Made by a program: the position numbers and the translations under genes. A stretch of DNA of 64,000 nucleotides, taken from contig JAQGGW010000005.1 in assembly GCA_028289135.1 (NCBI GenBank), positions 139,219 to 203,218 on the forward strand. Direction: 5' to 3'. Source of the DNA: Candidatus Saccharimonadota bacterium (lineage in GTDB: Bacteria; Patescibacteriota; Saccharimonadia; Saccharimonadales; JACDBH01). Each line of letters opens with the position of its first letter. Position 1 is the first letter of the stretch. The notes under the pieces are model-generated. The model was not told where the DNA came from. It made no database searches and worked only from the letters and a program-made list of their open reading frames with translations. Shown here piece by piece: positions 3,732-61,395 of the stretch.

Positions 3732-3753
3732 TCATATATACTGTTTAGTACTA

Positions 3754-3918
3754 TGAACCCATTTCATATCTTATCCCTGTTCTGCGGTCAAAACTGGCGG
3801 AAAGCTAATAACTTTTTGCTTCGCACCATATCTAAAGATATGCCTTGTTGCAAGAAAGTCATTATCTTCCTAGCCAGTTTTACCCTCGAACTTCAGAGAA
3901 AGGTATGAAATGGGTTCA
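3754..3918. repeat. 165-nt whole-spacer imperfect palindrome (copy 1)
   Basis: Perfect 15-bp terminal inverted repeat TGAACCCATTTCATA (3754-3768) / TATGAAATGGGTTCA (3904-3918). Inner arms AAAACTGGC (3790-3798) / GCCAGTTTT (3873-3881). Apex CATATCT..AGATATG (3827-3842) lies at the geometric centre. The 3' arm covers the recG ATG. Confidence 0.8.
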
Positions 3919-5955
3919 ATGGAACTAACAGGGGGTCTGACTGGTTTAAAAGGCGTGGGGCCAAGCGTTGCGGCGCTTTTTAAGGGCATTGGCATTTCGA
4001 CAATTGCCGAGCTGCTGGATTACTTTCCGCGTACGTATAATGACTATTCCGAAATCCAGACGATTTCGAAGATCAAACCCGGGATGGTTACCGTTGAGGT
4101 CGAGATTAAACAGTCCACAGGGCGCTATGTCCGCCGCGGCATGCATATCACCGAAGCAGTTGCTTCGGACGCTACAGGCAGCGTGCGTTTGCTGTGGTTT
4201 AACCAGCCCTATAGAGCCGCAAGCATTAAAACAGGCCAAAAATACTTTGTTACCGGCAAGCTGGAGCTTAAGGCCCAGCGCTTTAGTATTACAAACCCAA
4301 GTATGGAACAATCAAGCGATTTTCCGCTTCACACGGCACGCATTGTTCCGGTTTATCGTGAAAGCAAGGGCATAACTTCAACACTTCTGCGGCGGGTTTT
4401 ATACCAAGTGATCAAGTCCGCTTATCTATTGCCCGAACCTTTGCCAGAAGAAATCCGACGTAAATATAAATTGTTAACTTACGGCGCTGCAATTAGCGAA
4501 CTGCATTTTCCAACTTCGCGCGAAAGCTTTGCGGCTGCACGGCGGACGATTGGTTTTATAGAAGTTTTTGAGCTGATGCTGGCGGCATCATTAAACAAAG
4601 CCCAGAACCAAAGCGAACCGGCTCCATCAATCCCTTTTAAAGAAAAACTGGCCCAGAAGTTTGTAAAGTCTTTGCCGTTTACCTTAACCAACGCCCAAAG
4701 AGTTGCCGCATGGCAGATTTACCAAGATATTGTCTTCCCGGTACCTATGAACAGGCTTTTGGAAGGCGATGTTGGCTCCGGCAAAACCGTGGTGGCGGGG
4801 ATGGCCGGTCTAATGGCTATGGAGGCCGGATACCAAGTTGCATTAATGGCGCCGACTGAACTTTTGGCGCGGCAGCATGCCGAAACTTTAACCGATTTGT
4901 TTAAGGCGACTGGGCATGATGAGGTCGTGAGCCTACTTGTCGGAAGTTTAAAACCGGCCCAAAAGAAGATAGCCCAGGAACGCATTGCTAGCGGGCATAT
5001 CAAGTTTATTGTTGGAACGCAGGCTTTGCTGCAAGAAAAAGTTGTCATGCAAAACTTGGGGCTGTTGATTGTGGACGAACAGCACCGTTTTGGCGTTGAC
5101 CAGCGTAAAAAGTTGCTAAAAAGTTCGGGGTATATGCCGCATGTGCTCAGCATGACGGCCACCCCAATTCCGCGCTCTTTAGCATTGACGCTGTACGGTG
5201 AGCTGGATATTTCGCTTTTGGATGTTATGCCTATGGGCCGCAAGCCGATTATTACCGAAATTGTATCGCCGAACAGCCGAGAACCGCTTTATAAAAAAAT
5301 CGACGACGAAATTACGCAGGGACGTCAGGTTTACATAGTCTGCCCAGTCATTAAGGAAGGTTCTGGCCTAAAAGCGCCAAGCGCCGAGCAAACATATGAA
5401 AAATTGCGTAAAACCACCTTTAAACATCGCCAGCTGAGGCTTTTGCATGGCAAAATGAAAGACGATGAAAAATCCGCTGTTATGGAAGAGTTCGCAGCCG
5501 GGAAAATAGACATCTTGGTGGCAACAACCGTAATTGAAGTTGGTATCAGCGTCGCTAATGCCAGCGTGATGGTCATAGAGGGCGCTGACAGGTTCGGTCT
5601 TGCCCAAATGCACCAGCTCCGCGGCCGTGTGGGACGGAGTACCGATCAGGGCTACTGTTTTATTGTGCCAAGTGATAGCAAAGCCCCCAGCCCTAGGTTG
5701 CGGGCACTGAGCCAGTCTACAGATGGATTTAAGTTGGCAGAACTTGATCTAGAGCTACGCGGACCAGGAGCTATTTATGGCACGCTGCAGCACGGTGAGC
5801 TTGACCTGCGGATAGCCAAGCTCAGCGATGCCAAACTGCTGGCCGAAAGCCGCAAAGCGGTAAATGACTTTATTAAGGCAAAAATTAAATTGAGCGATTA
5901 CCCCGAACTAAAACGTCGTGTGCGTGCCGCCCAAGCCGTCGTTACCCTGAATTAG
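3910..5955 (+). CDS. recG: ATP-dependent DNA helicase RecG
   Basis: 681 aa. Walker A GDVGSGKT, DEQHRFG, TATPIPR, QLRGRVGR. SD GAAAGG 6 nt upstream. Confidence 0.93.
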   Translation: MGSMELTGGLTGLKGVGPSVAALFKGIGISTIAELLDYFPRTYNDYSEIQTISKIKPGMVTVEVEIKQSTGRYVRRGMHITEAVASDATGSVRLLWFNQPYRAASIKTGQKYFVTGKLELKAQRFSITNPSMEQSSDFPLHTARIVPVYRESKGITSTLLRRVLYQVIKSAYLLPEPLPEEIRRKYKLLTYGAAISELHFPTSRESFAAARRTIGFIEVFELMLAASLNKAQNQSEPAPSIPFKEKLAQKFVKSLPFTLTNAQRVAAWQIYQDIVFPVPMNRLLEGDVGSGKTVVAGMAGLMAMEAGYQVALMAPTELLARQHAETLTDLFKATGHDEVVSLLVGSLKPAQKKIAQERIASGHIKFIVGTQALLQEKVVMQNLGLLIVDEQHRFGVDQRKKLLKSSGYMPHVLSMTATPIPRSLALTLYGELDISLLDVMPMGRKPIITEIVSPNSREPLYKKIDDEITQGRQVYIVCPVIKEGSGLKAPSAEQTYEKLRKTTFKHRQLRLLHGKMKDDEKSAVMEEFAAGKIDILVATTVIEVGISVANASVMVIEGADRFGLAQMHQLRGRVGRSTDQGYCFIVPSDSKAPSPRLRALSQSTDGFKLAELDLELRGPGAIYGTLQHGELDLRIAKLSDAKLLAESRKAVNDFIKAKIKLSDYPELKRRVRAAQAVVTLN

Positions 5956-5978
5956 TTTGTTAGGGGTAAAGAAGACGA

Positions 5979-6143
5979 ACACATTCCACACTTGAGCTAG
6001 TTTCGGTACGGCTGCGCGGAACGCAAGTTAGCTGTACGGGATGGTACTGCTAACGCGTACCGCAAGCGGCCAAGCCGAAAATAGCCAAGAGTTCAGCCAC
6101 GGCTCGGCTTTGCCGAGACCTGGATGAACGGTGTGGGATGTGT
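5979..6143. repeat. 165-nt whole-spacer imperfect palindrome (copy 2, with 3' side branch)
   Basis: 13-bp terminal helix ACACATTCCACAC (5979-5991) / GTGTGGGATGTGT (6131-6143), one G-U. Inner helix CTTGAGCTAGTTTCGG / CCGAAAATAGCCAAG. Apex GTAC-GGGATG-GTAC (6034-6047). Side hairpin CTCGG-CTTTG-CCGAG. Core CCGAAAATAGCCA at 6075-6087. Confidence 0.75.
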
Positions 6144-6157
6144 GTATACTAGGTGTA

Positions 6158-6973
6158 ATGTATTCTGGACTAACCCTAACTCGTTACTCTGGGCGGCTAT
6201 TTGGCGGCCATCAACATGTTGACCGTGTGGCACGCAGGCATTTGGCCGAGCTTATGCACCCAAAATCGGCCTTTCCAGGGATCCGTTCAATTTTGCATTT
6301 TGAAGGCAAAAACGGTCCGGACGGCATAAAGCGCAAAAGCCCCTCCCGCAATGAGCCGTGGCATTTTTTTGAACCGCTAAAAGGCGATACGACGGCATTT
6401 ATGAAACTCATAGAGCAACATTACAAGCAACTCGTTAAAGAGCTTAAGGCAAAGAACAAAGAACGGTCGGCATTTGAAGCCGCTTGGTTTGCACATACCA
6501 TTGTTGACGGCTTAACTCCGGCGCACCATTATCCGTACGAAGAAAAAATGGCTGAGCTTCGGGGAGGAGCCGCGAAAGATGACCGTACGACCGTTATGCA
6601 AAAGTGGATTTTTAAAGGAGATACCAAATCAAAAACACTGCAAAATGTGTTTAAAACCTGGGGTCCGCGCGGGCTGTATATTGCCCACGGTATGTTTGAG
6701 CTGGGGTTTGGCTTTATTATTAAACCTCTTCGCTTTCCAGATGCGCGCCCACGCCCAAGCGACATACTTTTGGCTAAAAAATTAGGTTATCACGAATATT
6801 ATTTGCGCCAGGCGCGTAAAGTTGCCCGCATGCAACTGTTTGATGCTTACATTAAAGATGGCTGGACGAGCAAGATCAGCCGTCAGGTACGCGAAGAGCT
6901 AGCGCCGACTATCGTAAAGACAATCACAATAATGTGGTACATAGCTGCCGAAGAAGCGGGAGTAGATAAGTGA
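6158..6973 (+). CDS. hypothetical protein (His-rich motif HTIVDGLTPAHH)
   Basis: ORF is open from GTG 6131. ATG 6158 lies 7 nt after TATACT (6145-6150), so the start is uncertain. No confident family call. Confidence 0.6.
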   Translation: MYSGLTLTRYSGRLFGGHQHVDRVARRHLAELMHPKSAFPGIRSILHFEGKNGPDGIKRKSPSRNEPWHFFEPLKGDTTAFMKLIEQHYKQLVKELKAKNKERSAFEAAWFAHTIVDGLTPAHHYPYEEKMAELRGGAAKDDRTTVMQKWIFKGDTKSKTLQNVFKTWGPRGLYIAHGMFELGFGFIIKPLRFPDARPRPSDILLAKKLGYHEYYLRQARKVARMQLFDAYIKDGWTSKISRQVREELAPTIVKTITIMWYIAAEEAGVDK

Positions 6974-8349: not shown

Positions 8350-8364
8350 TCTTTGATTTTAAAT

Positions 8365-8628
8365 ATGTCAGAAATACACATAAGTCCACAGTGGTGCAGC
8401 AAGGACTTTACTCCAGGCGGAAGATCTACGTGGGCTACAGAAGTCAGCGCTTCTTTAGCATGCGCAAACTGCCGCACGGAGGGGCTTGGTGTCTTCATGT
8501 GGCCACCGATGGATAGCGAATTAATTGTAGGTACTGCACGTGAGGCTATTAAAGGAGCTACGGGGCTTGCCTTATCAGCTGCCCAAGTAGCTTGTCCTGC
8601 AGATTGCACAATCATTTGTAAACAATAA
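8365..8628 (+). CDS. candidate Cys-rich small protein (87 aa); could instead be non-coding
   Basis: ATG 8365 to TAA 8628 (MSEIHISPQWCSKDF...ACPADCTIICKQ), six Cys. No SD. Three overlapping ORFs on both strands are open here, so coding status is unclear. Confidence 0.3.
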   Translation: MSEIHISPQWCSKDFTPGGRSTWATEVSASLACANCRTEGLGVFMWPPMDSELIVGTAREAIKGATGLALSAAQVACPADCTIICKQ

Positions 8629-35588: not shown

Positions 35589-35718
35589 GTTCTCGCCCAT
35601 TTATCAGGGTACATTGCAGGCTAAAACCTGCGACAGAAAAAGGAGCAGTACGTTTGTACAGCTCCTTTTTCGTGCTCGGCCTTAGCTCTGCACTGCACTC
35701 CTGAAAATGACCGAGAAC
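35589..35718. repeat. 130-nt whole-spacer imperfect palindrome (copy A) directly after tuf
   Basis: Outer arms GTTCTCGCCCATTT (35589-35602) / AAATGACCGAGAAC (35705-35718). The 5' half and the reverse complement of the 3' half align along the whole length. Apex is the terminator hairpin. Homologous to copy B. Confidence 0.75.
35637..35670 (+). terminator. intrinsic (bidirectional-looking) terminator of tuf
   Basis: AAAAAGGAGCAGTAC-GTTT-GTACAGCTCCTTTTT, with an A-run and a T-run flanking the stem. Confidence 0.8.
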
Positions 35719-35870
35719 GGCTCAACTACGCTTCTATGCACGGCAAGAAACGAAAAACTGCATCCAAATGCATCGGCCAGTGACATGTTTGAATTGTTCC
35801 AGGAAATGAGATTTTGTTATTTTAGTCAAAACTATGCTAAAGTAGGTTTAATTAAATGAGGTTAATTGAG

Positions 35871-36215
35871 ATGGCGGAATTTTGTCCTGGATGCGATAGA
35901 GCGGGAATGGTTGTAGGTGATGTAGCTATAAGTATAAAAAAAGACGAACTTAGAAGTCCTTTAACAGATCTAGCTATAACTTTTACAGACGAAGATGGTT
36001 TTTTGCAACGCGGTTTTTTTGGTAGAGTTGTAGACCAAGAAGCAGACCTGGATACCAGCCTACTTGGCGAACGTCTTCTCAGCCGTATAGATCGCTGTAA
36101 AAGCCCAATGAGAAATGGTACATGCCCAGCCTTTAATCATGAGGTGGTTGAACAGTTAATACGATCTCAAGTAAGCCAGGAAGCAATAACTGAGCCTGAC
36201 CAGCCAGGAATTTAG
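35871..36215 (+). CDS. hypothetical protein with two Cys pairs (possible zinc-ribbon-like)
   Basis: MAEFCPGCDRAG...RCKSPMRNGTCPAF. ATG 35871 has GAGG 9 nt upstream; ATG 35856 is also possible. Confidence 0.45.
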   Translation: MAEFCPGCDRAGMVVGDVAISIKKDELRSPLTDLAITFTDEDGFLQRGFFGRVVDQEADLDTSLLGERLLSRIDRCKSPMRNGTCPAFNHEVVEQLIRSQVSQEAITEPDQPGI

Positions 36216-36295
36216 AAAAGCAAAAATACCATCGTGTAAAGAAGCTCACTGACTTATCTAGATAGACATTCATAATAAGTATCTTAGGAGTGCTT

Positions 36296-36628
36296 ATGTC
36301 TGTAGAGTTTAAGGGGCCTGTTATACCTGTTAGAATTGATGGCGAAAATGCTTCGCTACGTATTGTGCGTGATATGTCGTATAACATCGAAGCCGCCAGC
36401 GTGCTGTCTAACCCCGATGCAAATCCACCTTATGTCCAGCTAACACTGATATCTCCTCCAGGACCGCATTATAAAGAAGTTTGTGCAGATAAAATTACAG
36501 GTGATCCTGAGCCAAACCGTGCTCGCCTTATGTTTAACGAGCCATTTGGCGTTGATAAACTTATAGCTAACGCAATGAAAAGAGTAAGCAAGTCCAGGCA
36601 CCCAGCAGGAAGAGGAAATGCGAATTAA
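36296..36628 (+). CDS. hypothetical protein (110 aa, ORFan)
   Basis: SD GGAG 5 nt upstream of ATG 36296. No recognisable motif. Confidence 0.5.
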   Translation: MSVEFKGPVIPVRIDGENASLRIVRDMSYNIEAASVLSNPDANPPYVQLTLISPPGPHYKEVCADKITGDPEPNRARLMFNEPFGVDKLIANAMKRVSKSRHPAGRGNAN

Positions 36629-36687
36629 TTAAATTGCTTGACAGTAGGAATATAATTAAAGCATAAGTATTAATAAGGAACACAAAA

Positions 36688-36918
36688 ATGAAAAATGGAT
36701 TTGAGGATTCGGTAGCTCCAGTAGCTTATGGAGCTGATTTCGCTGGGCGAGTTGCTGTTGCAAGAGTTAATATGGATCAAGTATTAGAAACTCATCCTAA
36801 ACCAGATGTAAGATCTGTTGCAGCTCATGCGGGCAAAGTAATATTTCGAGAAATTGTATTTGCAGGTGCATGGTTAAACGCTGAAATTCATGGCGTAGAT
36901 CTTAGCCAAGTTGGTTAG
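36688..36918 (+). CDS. hypothetical protein (76 aa, ORFan)
   Basis: SD AAGGAA 8 nt upstream. No recognisable motif. Confidence 0.45.
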   Translation: MKNGFEDSVAPVAYGADFAGRVAVARVNMDQVLETHPKPDVRSVAAHAGKVIFREIVFAGAWLNAEIHGVDLSQVG

Positions 36919-37047
36919 GCTTTTCTTTTAAAGAAAAATGTTGTAAGATAACAGGGTAAATTAATGACGATGACTAAAAGTCGTTGTCCCGCTCTCTATA
37001 ATGGGCCAAAGATGTTACATCGCACGTGAAGAAAGGTTTTATATATT

Positions 37048-37410
37048 ATGGCTGAAGAAAAAAAGCCCGCAGCAACCAAAGCAGCTGCACCAGTAAAAAC
37101 TGAAGGCAAGCAACGCATCCGTATCCGTCTCAAGGCATACGACCACAAAGTAATCGACCAGTCTGCTAAGCAGATTGTTGATACCGCGCTCCGCACAGGT
37201 GCTACCATTGCTGGTCCAATCCCTCTCCCAACCCGTCGTAACACCTTCACCGTTGTTACCAGCCCGCACGTGTTTAAAAAAGGTCGTGAACAGTTTGAAA
37301 TGCGTATTCACAAGCGCCTGATTGACGTTTTTGACCCAACTCCAAAGACAATCGACAGCCTCATGAACTTGAGCCTGCCAGCCGGCTGCGACGCTGAAAT
37401 CAAAATGTAA
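37048..37410 (+). CDS. rpsJ: 30S ribosomal protein S10 (with A/K/P-rich N-terminal extension)
   Basis: 120 aa; core [19 protein letters not shown]... Perfect TATAAT at 36997-37002 upstream and a terminator immediately downstream. Confidence 0.95.
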
Positions 37411-37420
37411 CCATCTAAAG

Positions 37421-37450
37421 GGGCCTGGGAAACCGGGCCTTTTACTTTTT
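37421..37450 (+). terminator. intrinsic terminator right after rpsJ
   Basis: GGCCTGG-GAAA-CCGGGCC (7 bp, one G-U, GNRA loop) followed by TTTTACTTTTT. Confidence 0.8.
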
Positions 37451-37789
37451 ATGATTCACTTTCATGCTAATTATTTCGAAGGCACGACACAGCTCGGCCC
37501 TCATGTTACTCGTACTTTTGTTATTAACGAGGCTGGCTTCAGCGTGCCTGGTGCAATAACCGCATTTGAGGAATTAGAGTTAGCACGTGTCATTACATTC
37601 GCGCCTCATGTACATTTCGACACAAATGTTGAGCATCCAAGTATTCTTGTCCGCAATTCCGTGAAGGCCGGGAAACATATTGCTAAAGTCTTACGGCTAA
37701 GCGATTGGGGGGTTGGTAACTTCTCGAATGTATTCAACACAGATGCACTAGATTTTTGGCGTCCACAACAAGCTGACGATGATCTCTAA
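37451..37789 (+). CDS. doubtful hypothetical protein (112 aa)
   Basis: The ATG abuts the T-run of the rpsJ terminator and there is no SD or promoter. No motif recognised. Confidence 0.3.
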   Translation: MIHFHANYFEGTTQLGPHVTRTFVINEAGFSVPGAITAFEELELARVITFAPHVHFDTNVEHPSILVRNSVKAGKHIAKVLRLSDWGVGNFSNVFNTDALDFWRPQQADDDL

Positions 37790-37804
37790 GAGTGGTAAGT
37801 TAAC

Positions 37805-38158
37805 AAAAAAATAACCCCGGGCCTGATAAGCTTCGGGGTTATTTCGTATTCCGTCAGATGTATTCTTCGCGCATAGCCAGCTATTTCGAATTATTGCTGA
37901 GCAGGGTTATCAGCCCTCTTTTTCACGCTAGTCTGAGTCTCGCGCCGCACGGATACAATTTGCCGCTTAGCGATGGTGCCGGAGGTAAAAGGTTGGTCAA
38001 CTCTTGTCCATGGAACAAGCCGCCGCCTCTATTTTTACAACCTTCCTACAATAGCAGCTCACAACCAGTTTGGGCCGTACCCTCGCCGCATTGCTTATCA
38101 CCCTCCCAAAACAGAAGAATGCTCCTTAAACATACACTGGAACCATAACCAAAATCAA
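37805..38158 (-). ncRNA. candidate ~350-nt structured non-coding RNA, unclassified
   Basis: No credible ORF on either strand. Minus-strand TTGACC (38192-38187), 16-18 nt, then TATATAAA (38170-38163). Minus-strand terminator AACCCCG...CGGGGTT (37840-37813) plus T7. The transcript ends pair: 38114-38142 with 37849-37868 (4+4+7 bp). Confidence 0.45.
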
Positions 38159-38209
38159 CTATTTTATATATGAAAAAACTTACAGCGGTCAAAATGGTAT
38201 ATTAAAGTC

Positions 38210-38683
38210 ATGAATAAAGTTGTTGTGGCCGCAGAAGCTTTGGACCTTAGGCGGGGAATTGATTATATTGGTATTTCGGCTAATTTTGTCATTCACGATG
38301 GCAAAGGCAATATTTTATTACAAAAACGGAGCCAGAACTGCCGTGATGAACAGGGCAACTGGGACATTGGCGGCGGGGCTTTAGAATTTGGCGAAACTCT
38401 AGTAGAAGGCGTACGGCGCGAAGTTAAAGAAGAACTAATGACCGAAGCATTGGAAATAAAACTTCTAAAAGCCTACGAAGCCATCCGTGACAACAACGGT
38501 ACGCCTACGCACTGGATGGCGTTTACCCACGCCGTGCTGGTTGATCCTAAATCTATAAAAATTGGCGAACCACACAAGATTGATGAAATTGGCTGGTTTA
38601 CATCCGCGAACTTACCGAGTCCGCTGCACAGCCAGTTTTATAAGTCTTTTGATATTGCCCGCGAGCTCGGAATTGTGCATTAA
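38210..38683 (+). CDS. NUDIX hydrolase
   Basis: 157 aa. Nudix box GGGALEFGETLVEGVRREVKEELM. Extended -10 TGGTATATT (38195-38203) lies 6 nt before the ATG. Confidence 0.88.
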   Translation: MNKVVVAAEALDLRRGIDYIGISANFVIHDGKGNILLQKRSQNCRDEQGNWDIGGGALEFGETLVEGVRREVKEELMTEALEIKLLKAYEAIRDNNGTPTHWMAFTHAVLVDPKSIKIGEPHKIDEIGWFTSANLPSPLHSQFYKSFDIARELGIVH

Positions 38684-38738
38684 TCCAACTGTGGCATATC
38701 TAACAGCTTATGCTAAAGGGTTTTGATAACTTTATTAG

Positions 38739-39035
38739 GTGGAGTTTCCCCCATACGAAGCAGGTGAAGACGAACTTCTAACGGCCGCCAGAGGTGCTGT
38801 ACCTGAACTTTGCGGTGGATGTGAAGATATTAATGAGTTGGCATTTAGTTTATATAAACATGCTGCATATGAACGTGATTTTTTTAGACGTGATAGGCGT
38901 TCCAGATATCCTGATACTTTACGGATGCAACCTCCAAATCCAGAGCGCCTAGCCAGACACATATCCCTTGTTATTGTGGCAAAATGTTTATCACAGTGTC
39001 CATACGGCGTCCCTGTGCGAATAAGAACTTCTTAG
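38739..39035 (+). CDS. hypothetical protein with CGGC and CLSQC pairs (98 aa)
   Basis: GTG start without a convincing SD. Two Cys pairs. Confidence 0.3.
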   Translation: MEFPPYEAGEDELLTAARGAVPELCGGCEDINELAFSLYKHAAYERDFFRRDRRSRYPDTLRMQPPNPERLARHISLVIVAKCLSQCPYGVPVRIRTS

Positions 39036-39050
39036 TGCTACACTTAATTT

Positions 39051-39944
39051 ATGAAATTTGGCGCTACTTTTTCATATAAATATGCCCTGGAAATGAGCGT
39101 TGACCCCAAGGAGTGTCTAAAAGCGGCACTGGATGATCTGGGTGTAAGGAGATTGCGCCTTATGAGCTACTGGGATCTCCACGAACCCAAACAAGGCTCC
39201 TACGACTTCACAGAGCTCGACTGGCAGGTTGATATGGCCGAGCAGTCTAATTGTGCTGTTTTGCTATGCCTTGGCCTCCGGCAGCCCCGTTGGCCCGAGA
39301 GCCATTGGCCGGCTTGGGCAAAAGTGTTACCGGATGCAGAGTGGCAAAAGGCGCTGGACGACTACATTACAGTGGTGGTTAACAGATATAAAGGCCGGAA
39401 ATGTATCTTAAGCTATGAGTTAGAAAACGAAGCACTGCTAAAAGCCTTTGGACTAGATGGTAACTATGACCGTAACAGATTAAAACGTGAGTTTAAACTG
39501 GTTAAAACATTGGATCCAAGCCGGATAGTCATAATGAGCACCAGCGACTCCGGCGGTTTCCCATTATTTGGCCCAAAACCAGATATGTACTCCTACACAA
39601 TCTACCGTTACTTCTTTAGGCGCGGCAAGTACCGCCACTCTGTCCGCCCAGCTTGGACATACCACCTGCGGGCACAAATTATCTATCTGTTTAAGCGCCG
39701 TAAATCTTTCATCCATGAGCTCCAAGCTGAACCGTGGGGTCCAGAAGGCACTTCAAAGTTAACTGTCGAAGAGCAGTTTAAGAGTATGAACAGGGAAAGA
39801 GTCCAGGAAGCTGTGGCATACGTGCGCCGTACGCAACTGCTTCCAGCTGACCTTTGGGGCTTGGAGTGGTGGTACTGGCTAAAAACGGCTCAAGATATGC
39901 CGGAAATATGGAATGACCTAAAACCTATATTCGCTGAGGAATAA
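39051..39944 (+). CDS. glycoside hydrolase, clan GH-A TIM-barrel-like (family unassigned)
   Basis: 297 aa. SYELENE (acid/base-type NE) and IHELQAEPWG (nucleophile-type E) spaced as in clan-A enzymes. Confidence 0.6.
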   Translation: MKFGATFSYKYALEMSVDPKECLKAALDDLGVRRLRLMSYWDLHEPKQGSYDFTELDWQVDMAEQSNCAVLLCLGLRQPRWPESHWPAWAKVLPDAEWQKALDDYITVVVNRYKGRKCILSYELENEALLKAFGLDGNYDRNRLKREFKLVKTLDPSRIVIMSTSDSGGFPLFGPKPDMYSYTIYRYFFRRGKYRHSVRPAWTYHLRAQIIYLFKRRKSFIHELQAEPWGPEGTSKLTVEEQFKSMNRERVQEAVAYVRRTQLLPADLWGLEWWYWLKTAQDMPEIWNDLKPIFAEE

Positions 39945-39949
39945 CAGTT

Positions 39950-40495
39950 CTACTCTCCAAATAAACTGGTGGTGGTTGCCATACCAACAGTAACCGTTGC
40001 TAACATCTGTAGTGGGTGCTTTTTGCCATCCTGGTTGCCTACGCGTATAAATCTATCAAAAAATGCCGCTCGCGCACCCCAGTAAGAGGTAAATCTTGTG
40101 TCCACGTGCGCTGCTCTGCGTGGATCTACTTTTGCACTTCTAGCTGCCGCACCTAGAGCGTTTAGTGAAGTTAAAAACCCGCCGTATTCGTTGGGAGCAT
40201 ATACGGGAGGGTAGCCAAGCTGCGCCTGGACCATTTCAACCAAAGTAGACGAAATTCCACAGGCATCCGCCGGGAGGTCTTGGTGGTTGTCGTTTATAAT
40301 CGCGGTTTTGATCCCAACTTCGGCCAATTCCTCAAGCAATGTCTGTGCATGCTCATGTACATCATAAGTGTTACTACCATGAGCTAGCATCAAACTACCA
40401 AGTCCAAAGGTAACCAGGCCAATACCGCCTTGCTCAAACCCTTTTGCGTTAAGTTTGCTTAAGTCGACGCCTACTTCTATTCCAGTTCTTAACAT
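39950..40495 (-). CDS. hypothetical protein (181 aa)
   Basis: Only sizeable minus-strand ORF inside the r-protein region that does not overlap a plus-strand gene. No motif recognised. Confidence 0.5.
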   Translation of the reverse strand: MLRTGIEVGVDLSKLNAKGFEQGGIGLVTFGLGSLMLAHGSNTYDVHEHAQTLLEELAEVGIKTAIINDNHQDLPADACGISSTLVEMVQAQLGYPPVYAPNEYGGFLTSLNALGAAARSAKVDPRRAAHVDTRFTSYWGARAAFFDRFIRVGNQDGKKHPLQMLATVTVGMATTTSLFGE

Positions 40496-40584
40496 GCGTA
40501 CAAGTGTAGGGCAGCCTTATATTAAAGTAAAACGCTAAAGCTAATGTAAAATATGCTGCAACACGCAGTAGAATGCACAACGTC

Positions 40585-40614
40585 TTGACAGGGGTAGTGT
40601 TAGCATGGTAATCT
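40585..40614 (+). promoter_or_regulatory. promoter TTGACA-N18-TAATCT (extended TG) of the rplC operon
   Basis: -35 at 40585-40590, TGG at 40606-40608, -10 at 40609-40614. Confidence 0.6.
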
Positions 40615-40647
40615 GTAGTGGTATATCAACAAATTGTGTACGCAGCA

Positions 40648-40701
40648 CTTGGTAAATTGGCAGGTCTAACAGATTAGAAACCGCCTCCTACCAAGGTTTT
40701 T
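40648..40701 (+). promoter_or_regulatory. terminator-like hairpin in the rplC leader (possible autoregulatory attenuator)
   Basis: Three stacked helices: CTTGGTA/TACCAAG, GGC(A)GG/CCGCC and TCTAA/TTAGA. Followed by GTTTTT, 55 nt before the rplC ATG. Confidence 0.5.
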
Positions 40702-40756
40702 AATAGCTGTGCCTCACAGAGATATCGAAAGATAACTCATAAAAAATAAGGAATCT

Positions 40757-51643: not shown

Positions 51644-51865
51644 ATGGCCAAGAACAAGGAAGTCATCGAACTAGCCGGTACCATCACCGAGACACTACCG
51701 GGCACCCAGTTCCGTGTTGAACTCGAGAATGGCCATCAAATCATTGCACACGTTGCAGGTAAGATGCGAAAGCACTTTATCCGTATCGTGCCAGGAGACA
51801 GCGTGACGGTAGAATTGACACCTTACGATCTCACCAAAGGTCGTATAACCTACCGCAAATCTTAG
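51644..51865 (+). CDS. infA: translation initiation factor IF-1
   Basis: 73 aa from [16 protein letters not shown]... S1-like fold pattern. Confidence 0.95.
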
Positions 51866-51869
51866 CTTT

Positions 51870-51978
51870 CGTAGCTTGCACATTTCAGGCCAAAATCTGC
51901 GTCAAAAAGTCTCAATGTACTTCTTTGTACATCTCAACTTTTGTGCTCGATTATGACTCTGAACTGCGCTAAGCTACG
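51870..51978. repeat. 109-nt whole-spacer imperfect palindrome (copy B) directly after infA
   Basis: 8-bp outer helix CGTAGCTT (51870-51877) / AAGCTACG (51971-51978). Apex ATGTAC-TTCTTT-GTACAT with A-/T-run flanks. Aligns with copy A over ~150 nt (CATTTCAGGCCAAAATCTGCG vs CATTGCAGGCTAAAACCTGCG, and so on). Confidence 0.7.
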
Positions 51979-52120
51979 CAACCTAAGATGGTTGCACGAC
52001 AGAAACTTTACAAGAAAAGACATAGCAAGGTCCTAAAAGACCAGAGATGTAGTTTCTTGCAAAGAGTCTAATTATTAATAACTAACGCAGTGTGTCACCC
52101 CTTTGAAAGGAGCGATCCGT

Positions 52121-58366: not shown

Positions 58367-58621
58367 ATGAATTTACAAGAAGCAGGTCAATTATTACGAG
58401 CAAAGGGCATAGAAGTTGACCCTACTGATCCTCGTGACGTTATACAAATCGGTCTAGATATGGGTCATATAGGACTCAAGCATCGACTGACCGAATTAAC
58501 GGGCAGTTACGATCGTGCAGACATAGCAGCTATGCGAAGAGGTGGGCTTGTGGTGGAAGCTGTCGGCTTCGGCCAGGCGGTATATGAAGCAGTATTTATC
58601 GATCAAATTACCCAAATTTAA
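58367..58621 (+). CDS. hypothetical protein (84 aa)
   Basis: SD AAAGGAGA upstream. First ORF after attenuator W2. Confidence 0.5.
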   Translation: MNLQEAGQLLRAKGIEVDPTDPRDVIQIGLDMGHIGLKHRLTELTGSYDRADIAAMRRGGLVVEAVGFGQAVYEAVFIDQITQI

Positions 58622-58629
58622 GGAGTTAT

Positions 58630-59320
58630 ATGAAGAATAATAGAACAATTGGAATTATAGGTGGCATGGGTCCGCAGGCAGGCCTGTTTGCACATGAGTT
58701 AATTTTAGAGCATGCGAGGTCTCTTTGGGCCAGCAACCTTGCTAAATTTCCCTACCGTCGTTCATCTTACGCTGCCGGTTACAAACTTTTTTGCTAATCC
58801 TGAACACGCGCAGAAAGGAGTGGCGACGATATTCTCTGGGATCGAAAAGCATTCACTTGCAACTTGTGATGATGTTATTATAGCCTGCAATACTGCGCAT
58901 ATATTAGCCGAAGAGATCACAGATAAGACGAGGATCAAGCTACGATCGCTCATTGAACGAACGCATAAAGAAATAGTAGTAAGAGGACATAAAAGAGTTG
59001 GAATTATTGCCTCTCCCACCACTTTAAAGAAGCGGCTTTTTGCATTTTCGGGTGTTGATCTTGTGTTGCCTACTACAAAAGAAATAAATACCCTTGAACG
59101 CATTATAGGAGAAGTCATAAATGGCAAAAGTACTTCGGAAGTTAAAGAAGAAGTTGAAGAAATTGTAAGTAGGCTTTTTAGTCTCGGGGTAGATGCTGTA
59201 ATTCTTGGTTGTACAGAATTGGAAATGATACTTCGGGATAGCAAACATACGGATCTGATAAAACCACTTAATCTAACAATTAAGTCGATATTTGAAGGCA
59301 CAATAGAAAACGCAGAATAA
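58630..59320 (+). pseudogene. aspartate/glutamate racemase family gene with a +1 frameshift
   Basis: N-terminal MKNNRTIGIIGGMGPQAG... is in the frame of ATG 58630, which stops at 58797. The rest (NFPTVVHLTLP...IIACNTAH...ILGCTE) is in the frame of ORF 58712..59320. Confidence 0.75.
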
Positions 59321-60364: not shown

Positions 60365-60526
60365 GGCTTTTCCCCTAAGTAAATTATGAGACATAAAATG
60401 AGATATTTTCGAGACAAAATAGTTAAGGTGCGACAAAAGGTAGTAGATGCTACATTGCGAAGCGGCTTAGCTGTTTTGTCCGAAAATAGCCATTTTAGGG
60501 CCACAATCTTGCTTGGGGAGAAGCCC
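60364..60526. repeat. 163-nt whole-spacer imperfect palindrome (copy 3)
   Basis: Outer helix GGGCTTTTCCCCTAAG (60364-60379) / CTTGGGGAGAAGCCC (60512-60526): 15 bp, one G-U, one bulge. Nested helices TAAAATG/CATTTTA, TATTTTCG/CGAAAATA and GACAAAATAGTTAAG/CTTAGCTGTTTTGTC. Core CCGAAAATAGCCA at 60480-60492. Confidence 0.8.
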
Positions 60527-60528
60527 TG

Positions 60529-61395
60529 ATGCCGCGGCAATGGATCACCGTCACCGAAGAACTGGTCGGTAAAAGAACAGATAAGCTGATTGCCGACTAT
60601 TTTCCTTCATACCCTCGCGCCGCGCTGCACAAACTATTTGAAAGCGGCGATATTGAGATGAATGAAAAACCTGTTAAGCCAGGAATAAAAGTCCGGCTGG
60701 GTGATAATCTTCGTATTGATCTTTCGCCGCTTGATATAACGATTGAGGATATCGAACTGCCTATTTTGTATGAAGATGATGACGTTTTGGTTGTAAACAA
60801 GCCGGCGGGTATAATCTCCCATGCGCGAGGCAAGTATTTTGATGAGCCGTCGGTGGCGTCTTTTGTCCGTCAAAAAGTTGCTTCTTTAACGGGTGAGCGG
60901 AGCGGGATTGTTCATCGCCTTGACCGTGCGACTAGCGGTGTTATGGTCTGTGCCAAAAACCCTGAAAGTTTGAGCTGGCTGCAGCAGCAGTTTAGCGGCC
61001 GTAAAGTCCAAAAGACTTATATGGCGATTGTCGTCGGCAGTATGCCTACCGAAGAAGGGAAGATCGATATGCCGATTGCGCGCAACCCGGCCAAACCGGT
61101 GACATTTCATGTTGACCCGGGAGGTAAAGATTCGGTCACGAACTTTAAGGTCGTTTCAAGCCACAAGAACTACACTTTGCTTGAACTCAAACCAGTTACA
61201 GGGCGCACTCACCAGCTGCGCGTGCATTTGAGCCATCTTAAACATCCAATTGTTGGGGATGACCTTTATAGCGGCGAACCGGCTGAACGGCTCATGCTGC
61301 ATGCTTATTCTTTAGTTATTACTTTGCCTTCAAAAGAAGTGGTAACATTTGAAGCGCCTATCCCTGAGGAATTTAAAAAGTACACGGACGCCTGA
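60529..61395 (+). CDS. rluD: RluA-family pseudouridine synthase (RluD-like, S4 domain plus catalytic domain)
   Basis: 288 aa. Catalytic HRLDRATSGV. N-terminal S4-like segment. Confidence 0.82.
   Translation: MPRQWITVTEELVGKRTDKLIADYFPSYPRAALHKLFESGDIEMNEKPVKPGIKVRLGDNLRIDLSPLDITIEDIELPILYEDDDVLVVNKPAGIISHARGKYFDEPSVASFVRQKVASLTGERSGIVHRLDRATSGVMVCAKNPESLSWLQQQFSGRKVQKTYMAIVVGSMPTEEGKIDMPIARNPAKPVTFHVDPGGKDSVTNFKVVSSHKNYTLLELKPVTGRTHQLRVHLSHLKHPIVGDDLYSGEPAERLMLHAYSLVITLPSKEVVTFEAPIPEEFKKYTDA

Follow-up and report, generated by a model that had tools for sequence, protein, structure and literature searches.

Lineage-specific palindromic elements, probably mobile, at short gene junctions around recG in a Saccharibacteria genome

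Saccharibacteria and the other bacteria of the candidate phyla radiation (CPR) have very small, tightly packed genomes which are usually described as repeat-poor. The stretch of DNA analyzed here (the window, 64,000 nt of a Saccharibacteria (TM7) genome; 73 kb of the source genome were examined when the adjoining upstream locus L079 is included) carries recG in the order tyrS, murT, gatD, recG, a 271-aa gene of unknown function and a methyltransferase gene, followed by rpoBC and ribosomal-protein clusters. On the + strand, recG occupies positions 3919..5955 (conserved start MELT..., with an alternative in-frame ATG at 3910) and the 271-aa gene, which has no Pfam hit, positions 6158..6973 (conserved start MYSG...). 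The spacers on both sides of recG are filled by long imperfect palindromes, named H1 (upstream) and H2 (downstream). This report describes these two elements, three further ones from the same window (H3, H4, and H5) and their homologs at other loci, which are designated by L numbers.

H1 (3755..3917, outlined as 3754-3918 in the original prediction; no strand is assigned) is a 163-nt hairpin element placed after the -10 box of recG and ahead of the conserved start of this gene, with the 3' arm of the element reaching over the alternative ATG 3910. A perfect 15-bp terminal repeat with pairing up to a central apex had been claimed for it, and the folding bears this out: 3754-3768 pairs perfectly with 3904-3918 as a 15-bp inverted repeat, which can be extended to 19 pairs, one of them G-U, and the segment 3754-3918 makes one hairpin with a central apex, a minimum free energy (MFE) of -66.2 kcal/mol and a z of -9.9, none of 200 shuffles being as good. 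The right terminal inverted repeat (3901..3917, - strand) has the reverse complement GAACCCATTTCATACCT. H2 (5977..6145; the + strand folds better) is a Y-shaped element that separates the recG stop from the -10 box of the following gene. The proposed terminal helix, long inner helix and side hairpin were all recovered in the fold of 5979-6143, where a closing helix of 14 bp (5979-5992 with 6130-6143) encloses a 95-nt long hairpin (5993-6087) and a 39-nt side hairpin (6091-6129), with an MFE of -95.6 kcal/mol and a z of -10.2. The two copies had been given exactly the same length, 165 nt, which holds for their ends as first drawn but not when they are measured against empty sites (163–166 nt for H1, about 174 nt for H2).

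The position of the elements relative to start codons and promoters differs from what was first supposed. Nearly all of the 120 best RecG homologs are 678 aa long and begin as at ATG 3919; the statement that the 3' arm of H1 contains the recG ATG is right for the first in-frame ATG (3910) and wrong for the conserved start, which lies just outside. The GTG at 6131, which the 3' arm of H2 had been said to cover, is not the real start of the downstream gene: H2 covers no start codon, because the conserved start is ATG 6158 and GTG 6131 belongs to an extension of the open reading frame (ORF). Start-codon sequestration is thus possible for H1 only, where the terminal helix includes both ATG 3910 and GAAAGG, a sequence resembling a Shine-Dalgarno (SD) motif 6 nt upstream of it, and is dismissed for H2. 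The two -10 boxes, both TATACT on the + strand, are at 3737..3742, where it would represent the ancestrally leaderless recG promoter, and at 6145..6150, immediately 3' of H2. In seven relatives recG and the next gene have TATAAT or TATACT 7–10 nt before the ATG, as expected of leaderless or near-leaderless mRNAs, and for the downstream gene a GGTATAAT or CGTATAAT box is conserved in relatives at this distance (7–10 nt). Within the window such a -10 box precedes 8 of 43 genes (3.5% of random positions have one) and an SD motif is found in 27 of 43, which implies a genome in which putative leaderless genes are mixed with SD-led ones. About one fifth of the window genes combine a TATAAT-like box 6–11 nt before the start with the lack of an SD (e.g., 1720, 6158, 17040, 38210, 59336, 62290).

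The whole 64-kb window was screened with a GC-corrected sliding energy scan, with shuffled controls for z. H1 and H2 are among its three strongest outliers, and the scan also picked out 60365-60528, 35589-35718 and, less strongly, 51859-51990. Applied to relatives, the same scan returned mostly tRNAs and terminators as top outliers. H3 (60365..60526; the + strand folds better) is a hairpin of about 160 nt which fills the trpS-rluD junction (z -10.7); its 3' arm supplies GGGGAG, 8 nt upstream of the rluD ATG. H4 (35589..35718; the - strand folds better) is a 130-nt hairpin situated directly after the tuf stop codon (z -8.4), with a terminator-like apex, and H5 (51859..51990, - strand) is a 132-nt hairpin that follows infA and is homologous to H4. 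No further element was found in the 9 kb of L079. A seed-based inverted-repeat census and a maximum-nesting-depth statistic were not discriminating. Since five elements distributed over some 60 spacers are expected to give about 0.3 adjacent pairs by chance, no special link between the elements and recG is claimed.

H4 stands at the left edge of a stretch (window 35589-40756) in which the tuf-rpsJ-rplC cluster is broken: about 1.4 kb with small ORFs devoid of family matches separate tuf from rpsJ (37048-37410), and about 3.3 kb with a NUDIX hydrolase, a glycosyl-hydrolase-like protein and unknown ORFs separate rpsJ from rplC. At the junction occupied by H3, another genome (L083 1294-1743; RluD 92% identical) has a 149-aa ORF with no Pfam hit and no hairpin, and trpS-rluD appears to be a recurrent insertion point.

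Comparison with relatives bears on how the hairpins came to lie where they do. The closest relative genome, JGI contig Ga0500643_000011 (loci L029 and L081), has RecG 94% and RluD 96% identical to those of the window, with DNA about 80% identical. Four of its junctions are short compared with the window: gatD-recG (21 vs. 178 nt), recG-next gene (28 vs. 202 nt), trpS-rluD (5 vs. 164 nt) and the unaligned segment 3' of infA (30 vs. 203 nt). Set against these empty sites, the inserts measure 163–166 nt for H1, about 174 nt for H2 (vs. L029) and about +173 nt for H5 (vs. L081). H1 is absent from L029, L001, L031, L002, L004, L005, and L012, and element junctions are likewise empty in L001, L002, L004, L005, L006, L012, L031, L032, and others; the trpS-rluD junction measures 5 nt in L081, L082, and L032 while the two genes overlap in other relatives. 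The search for empty sites which had been recommended for H1 and H2 was therefore positive, both sites being short and empty in the closest relative and in about ten others, and the hairpins are best read, from these alignments, as lineage-specific insertions at short gene junctions. The possibility that recG itself is a horizontally replaced cassette was considered and rejected, as its divergence from L029 is the same as that of the neighboring genes.

At H1 the empty site of L029 reads AGTACTATGGAG, and BLAST places the L029 ATG at both window positions, i.e., on either side of the element. The flanks of H1 show a possible 3-bp target duplication with one mismatch (TAT at 3752..3754 on the left, AAT at 3918-3920 on the right), or alternatively a duplicated ATG (3753-3755 and 3919-3921), the repeat amounting to 1–3 bp (A/AT/ATG). 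The H1 homolog at L064 has TTA on both sides, whereas H2, H3 and the elements of L084 and L061 show no such repeat.

Homologs were sought with BLASTN, nhmmer and covariance models (R1–R3). BLASTN of the hairpins against the window and 85 loci missed every one of them. H2 is related to an element between rpmG and gdh (L084 5243-5420, - strand; nhmmer E 3.8e-12) and to one upstream of trpS (L061/L062 9175-9345, - strand), which model R1 matches over its full length with 47.5 bits and the same Y shape. The core of H3 is related to another element upstream of trpS (L064 9812-9985, - strand; nhmmer E 8.8e-5), and this same L064 element is matched by model R3, built from H1, with 51.7 bits, R3 matching no other long hairpin; a model made from H3 and the L064 element retrieved no further members. 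H4 and H5 are related to each other with a Smith-Waterman z of 21 and an nhmmer E of 1e-5 to 1e-6. One family (H4/H5) thus has two copies in one genome, and the relatives of H1, H2 and H3 are found at other loci of other genomes. The further copies that had been looked for exist, as H3, H4 and H5 within the window and as homologs at non-orthologous loci elsewhere, and the covariance models favor real, structure-conserving elements.

The termini link some of these families. The left terminal inverted repeat of H1 (3755..3771, + strand), GAACCCATTTCATATCT, is identical at 15 of 17 positions to the terminus of the L064 element, GAACCTATTCCATATCT, both elements having GAACCYATTYCATATC at their two ends and similar lengths (163 and 164 bp). 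It had been held that the terminal arms of H1 and H2 share no sequence and that only the pairing is conserved between them; neither statement stood. Their left ends, GAACCCATTTCATAT (3755) and GAACACATTCCACAC (5977), are identical at 11 of 15 positions when shifted by 1–2 nt, the motif GAACnnATTyCA is common to both termini, and GAACNNATTYCA occurs three times in the 64 kb, always at H1/H2 termini, with 0.34 occurrences expected. Judged by these ends, H1 and H2 are diverged members of one putative superfamily. H3, H4 and H5 do not clearly have the same termini as H1 and L064, and at least two or three divergent groups can be distinguished among the five elements. A 13-mer, CCGAAAATAGCCA, is common to H2 (6075-6087) and H3 (60480-60492) at nearly equal distance from the left ends, with CAAAAATAGCC in the corresponding position of the L084 element; possibly this is an internal motif which the superfamily has conserved.

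Conservation of pairing was evaluated between related elements. Across the 62 pairs compared between H2 and the L084 element, pairing is formed in both at 100%, with 21 pairs changed on both sides and none broken, as compared with 0–3 double changes and 32–44% pairing in slid controls. Compensatory pairs also account for 17 of 48 between H3 and the L064 element and for 17 of 42 between H4 and H5. The stems are not perfectly paired and contain both bulges and G-U pairs. All members of the H2 and H3 families fold better on the same element strand, by 11–20 kcal/mol (G-U pairs 4–7 vs. 0–3), and in H4 and H5 the favored strand is the minus strand. Most G-U pairs are specific to a single member and therefore arose independently. 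The favored strand is sense to the neighboring genes for H2 and H3 and antisense to both neighbors for the L061 and L064 elements, H4 and H5. A G-U bias consistently on the mRNA strand was considered and rejected, since the bias tracks element orientation. These comparisons indicate that the structure is under selection, on one strand, and the strand pattern fits an element whose own single-stranded form (single-stranded DNA (ssDNA) or its own transcript) must fold. As the favored strand follows the element and not the host genes, this pattern does not sit easily with a role solely in cis within the flanking mRNAs.

Taken together, H1 and H2 are probably two copies of a superfamily of small (ca. 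130–175 bp) non-coding palindromic mobile elements which resemble miniature inverted-repeat transposable elements (MITEs) and the hairpins formed by doublets of repetitive extragenic palindromic (REP) sequences (REPINs). Mobile hairpins of the MITE type were among the roles first suggested, and this suggestion gains support from the empty sites, the homologs at non-orthologous loci, the shared termini and the additional copies in the window. The elements would be non-autonomous and insert in A/T-rich junctions near -10 boxes and stop codons: H1 would have separated the start codon of recG, leaderless in its ancestral state, from the -10 box; H2 would have come to lie downstream of the recG stop and ahead of the -10 box that belongs to the following gene; and H3 would have entered the 5-nt, translationally coupled trpS-rluD junction. 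The hairpin would be a property of the element itself, kept in one strand, probably that of an ssDNA intermediate or of its own transcript. Only the lineages that retain pairing would persist or spread, which is proposed as the reason for the compensatory changes. Sense-strand inserts would become long stem-loops in the flanking mRNAs and bring SD-like sequences and short ORFs with them; ribosomes may unwind the stems during translation and then re-initiate at the recG and rluD starts, and the inserts may serve as RNase III substrates, 3' stabilizers or terminators.

The short ORFs are a 51-codon frame (3753..3908, + strand), which runs from what would be the ancestral leaderless ATG through H1 and whose TGA precedes ATG 3910 by one base, and a 47-codon frame inside H3 (60386..60529, + strand), the TGA of which overlaps the rluD ATG (TGATG). 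The frames running through H1 and H3 are not significant with respect to shuffles, and translational coupling is treated as possible rather than established because such open frames are not rare in shuffled sequences.

Several points weigh against the interpretation as mobile elements. The 73 kb of the source genome contain no second near-identical copy of H1, H2 or H3; the copies are few and old, and relatives within and between genomes are about 60–70% identical, unlike a recent MITE burst. No transposase is encoded in the window or the 9 kb upstream. Insertion, as opposed to repeated loss, is argued by parsimony over about 15 genomes, in which the closest relative is a different species with DNA about 80% identical. 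The target duplication is ambiguous at H1 (1–3 bp, one mismatch) and not visible at H2 and H3. Besides, the possible duplication and the strand preference point to different mobilization chemistries: duplications of 3 bp are typical of DDE enzymes with a cut-and-paste mode, and the selection of hairpins on one strand is typical of single-strand HUH enzymes.

The alternative that survives best, although we regard it as unlikely, is that the hairpins are cis-acting RNA elements selected by the host, such as RNase III sites, 5' or 3' stabilizers, terminators or translational repressors, which would separate recG expression from that of its neighbors and sequester an SD or start codon. Basal helices of 14–19 bp are plausible RNase III substrates, and the pairing is kept by compensatory change. 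The terminal helix of H1 buries GAAAGG and ATG 3910, a helix of H3 buries GGGGAG before the rluD ATG, the apex of H4 is a canonical terminator right after tuf, and in the L084 and L061 elements, read along the strand of the upstream gene, T runs come after the side hairpins. In addition, in an unrelated genome, L030, the spacers at either end of recG likewise form hairpins. However, five or six of eight elements (H4, H5, L061, L064, weakly H1, and L084 with respect to rpmG) have their better fold on the strand that is antisense to a flanking gene. None of the close relatives has the elements at the orthologous junctions, so the genes need none, and the real start codon next to H2 is untouched by it. 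RNase III processing or stability, also among the roles first put forward, is weakened as a primary cause because the favored strand of several members is antisense to the flanking genes; a host regulatory RNA function is possible as a secondary, co-opted role.

A bolder version of the mobile reading seems improbable to us at present. It would regard the elements as CPR-specific, strand-specific hairpin replicators or mobile expression modules rather than decaying MITE relics, whose single-stranded form is selected and which would be moved by an enzyme with which elements of this sort have so far not been associated in Saccharibacteria. Their targets would be A/T-rich sites close to promoters or stop codons, and leaderless genes would be rewired by them into leadered, hairpin-gated and coupled ones.

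It is very unlikely that the palindromes were made locally, by template switching, fold-back repair or repeat slippage, and are mutually unrelated. This view draws on the lack of any copy of an H1 or H2 arm elsewhere in the window, on the L030 spacers at the same two recG junctions, which are inverted arrays of 7–8-nt units resembling the local -10 box, and on a similar low-complexity hairpin at L064 261-390. It is largely refuted for H1–H5 by their homologs: H1, H2, H3 and H4 have counterparts at other loci or genomes, with shared termini. Moreover, the arms of the window elements contain no tandem repeats, and ancestral spacers of 5–28 nt cannot supply 80-nt arms.

The L030 spacers deserve a brief description. 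In this Saccharibacterium (RecG 86% identical) they are hairpins of 88 and 93 nt, at 455-552 and 2580-2682, made up of AGTAGAA / TTTAGACT and GTATTTC / TATACGA units, and they are palindromes of a different kind, which possibly grew in place. The L064 hairpin, of about 90 nt and just upstream of a gene, has arms of GTAAGTA and TACTAC runs, of the same low complexity as those of L030.

Highly improbable as well is the view of the elements as structure-specific recombination sites of the attC type, or as another hairpin substrate of a site-specific recombinase, marking gene cassettes. It would account for imperfect palindromes of 130–175 bp that have kept their structure to a much greater extent than their sequence, and for one strand being favored, like the bottom strand of attC. 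The core RYYYAAC...GTTRRRY, however, is unmatched (the right ends read GTTCAAT in H1 and GTTCTTA in L064), no integrase gene occurs in the window, and the genes flanked by the elements (recG, trpS, rluD, tuf, infA) are syntenic core genes that have diverged like their neighbors. Lastly, the source is a metagenome-assembled genome and chimeras of multiple displacement amplification can give long inverted repeats, but an artifact of assembly or amplification (chimeric inverted joins) is practically negligible, as Logan contigs of run SRR13312994, independent of the window, carry identical H1/H2 (L028) and H3 (L080), the stems have bulges and G-U pairs, the inserts lie exactly between intact genes and unrelated datasets from ENA, JGI and elsewhere contain homologous elements.

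Database searches did not connect the elements with known mobile DNA or RNA families. Phage and plasmid collections (distant blastn) and a pattern of the two terminal-repeat arms run over viral contigs gave no match. Only tRNA-Leu passes the Rfam gathering threshold in the window, and permissive Rfam scans of three spacers yielded only sub-threshold, generic microRNA-precursor hairpins.

Some other segments of the source genome also differ from those of relatives. Just 3' of tRNA-Leu (window 8350-8624) there are about 216 nt more than in L029; the 3' end of tRNA-Leu is duplicated about 200 nt downstream in L001 (7551-7819) and L005 (8373-8645), and an inverted repeat around this tRNA is common to L003 (6070-6360) and L005. 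This region looks like integration scars. The tyrS-murT spacer (1387-1719) has 333 nt (53 nt in L029) and an 88-codon ORF at 1429-1695, and its folding is not exceptional (mononucleotide-shuffle z = -1.2). Upstream of trpS, an Asp/Glu racemase gene (58712-59320; region 58594-59319) is absent from L081, where 17 nt are found. Upstream of clpB, in L079 (640-860), TTAGCACTC is present twice, one of the copies in a CIRCE-like inverted repeat, TTAGCACTCTTGACACGTGAGTGCTAA, ahead of clpB.

The elements are of interest in several respects. They provide new families for annotation, which at present cause mis-called starts such as GTG 6131 and ATG 3910. Their covariation and strand bias give a signal of uncommon clarity. 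The case in which an element has entered between a -10 box and the start codon of a leaderless gene is instructive, and the inserts allow the tolerance of leaderless and of translationally coupled genes to a 165-nt stem-loop to be followed in a natural experiment. Selection of structure on one strand points to a mechanism of single-strand mobilization which has not been described in this phylum.

Four known systems invite comparison. The mycobacterial interspersed repetitive units (MIRUs) are intergenic operon repeats with short ORFs that overlap the flanking stop and start codons. H1 and H3 resemble them in occupying operon-type junctions and in having short ORFs whose stop adjoins or overlaps the start codon that follows (TGA-A-ATG and TGATG, respectively), which suggests that translational coupling may have been preserved, these ORFs not being statistically exceptional; MIRUs differ in being direct tandem repeats and not hairpins. 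The attC sites of integrons are likewise imperfect palindromes with structure conserved over sequence and one strand as the substrate, but they have an R''/R' core consensus, an integrase and cassette behavior, none of which is found in the window.

REPINs are closer, as their replicative unit is a symmetric hairpin with conserved ends and a variable spacer, which shows compensatory changes, is proposed to form in ssDNA or mRNA and persists for long in its lineages (PMC3116915). The window elements similarly have two inverted conserved motifs in a hairpin and compensatory stem changes. REPINs differ in size (about 70–110 nt), in consisting of two REP motifs of 20–40 nt and in numbering tens to hundreds of copies (PMC3116915), and they are tied to a single-copy gene for a REP-associated tyrosine transposase (RAYT, of the HUH type). 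Neither a REP motif nor a RAYT was identified in the 73 kb, and no short palindromic motif is over-represented in the 64 kb, as would be expected of a high-copy REP motif.

The likeness to bacterial MITEs extends furthest. MITEs whose whole length forms a stem-loop include ERIC/IRU, YPAL/RU-2 (168 bp), Correia/NEMIS, and RUP, and Correia elements are RNase III substrates (PMC2229807). Like the elements described here, MITEs are non-coding, measure 100–200 bp, have terminal inverted repeats, lie between genes and show filled and empty sites among relatives; their transcripts are predicted to form one long stem-loop, and some carry contiguous ORFs which are co-translated or co-transcribed with neighboring genes (PMC2229807). 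For their part, the elements reported here measure 130–175 bp, within the limit of about 300 bp for bacterial MITEs, have no transposase gene and only internal ORFs of at most 59 aa, share terminal repeats among copies (H1, L064 and the left end of H2) and have filled and empty sites (H1, H2, H3, H5). They depart from typical MITEs in that the copies are few and old (60–70% identity) instead of many and similar, in lacking the 5'-TA-3' terminal signature and a clear target duplication, and in their host, a CPR genome of roughly 1 Mb. Their compensatory pairing along the whole stem and their strand bias would be unexpected if only double-stranded terminal repeats were recognized. The literature searched holds no report of MITEs in Saccharibacteria or the CPR; the families are previously undescribed, and the general kind of element is well known.

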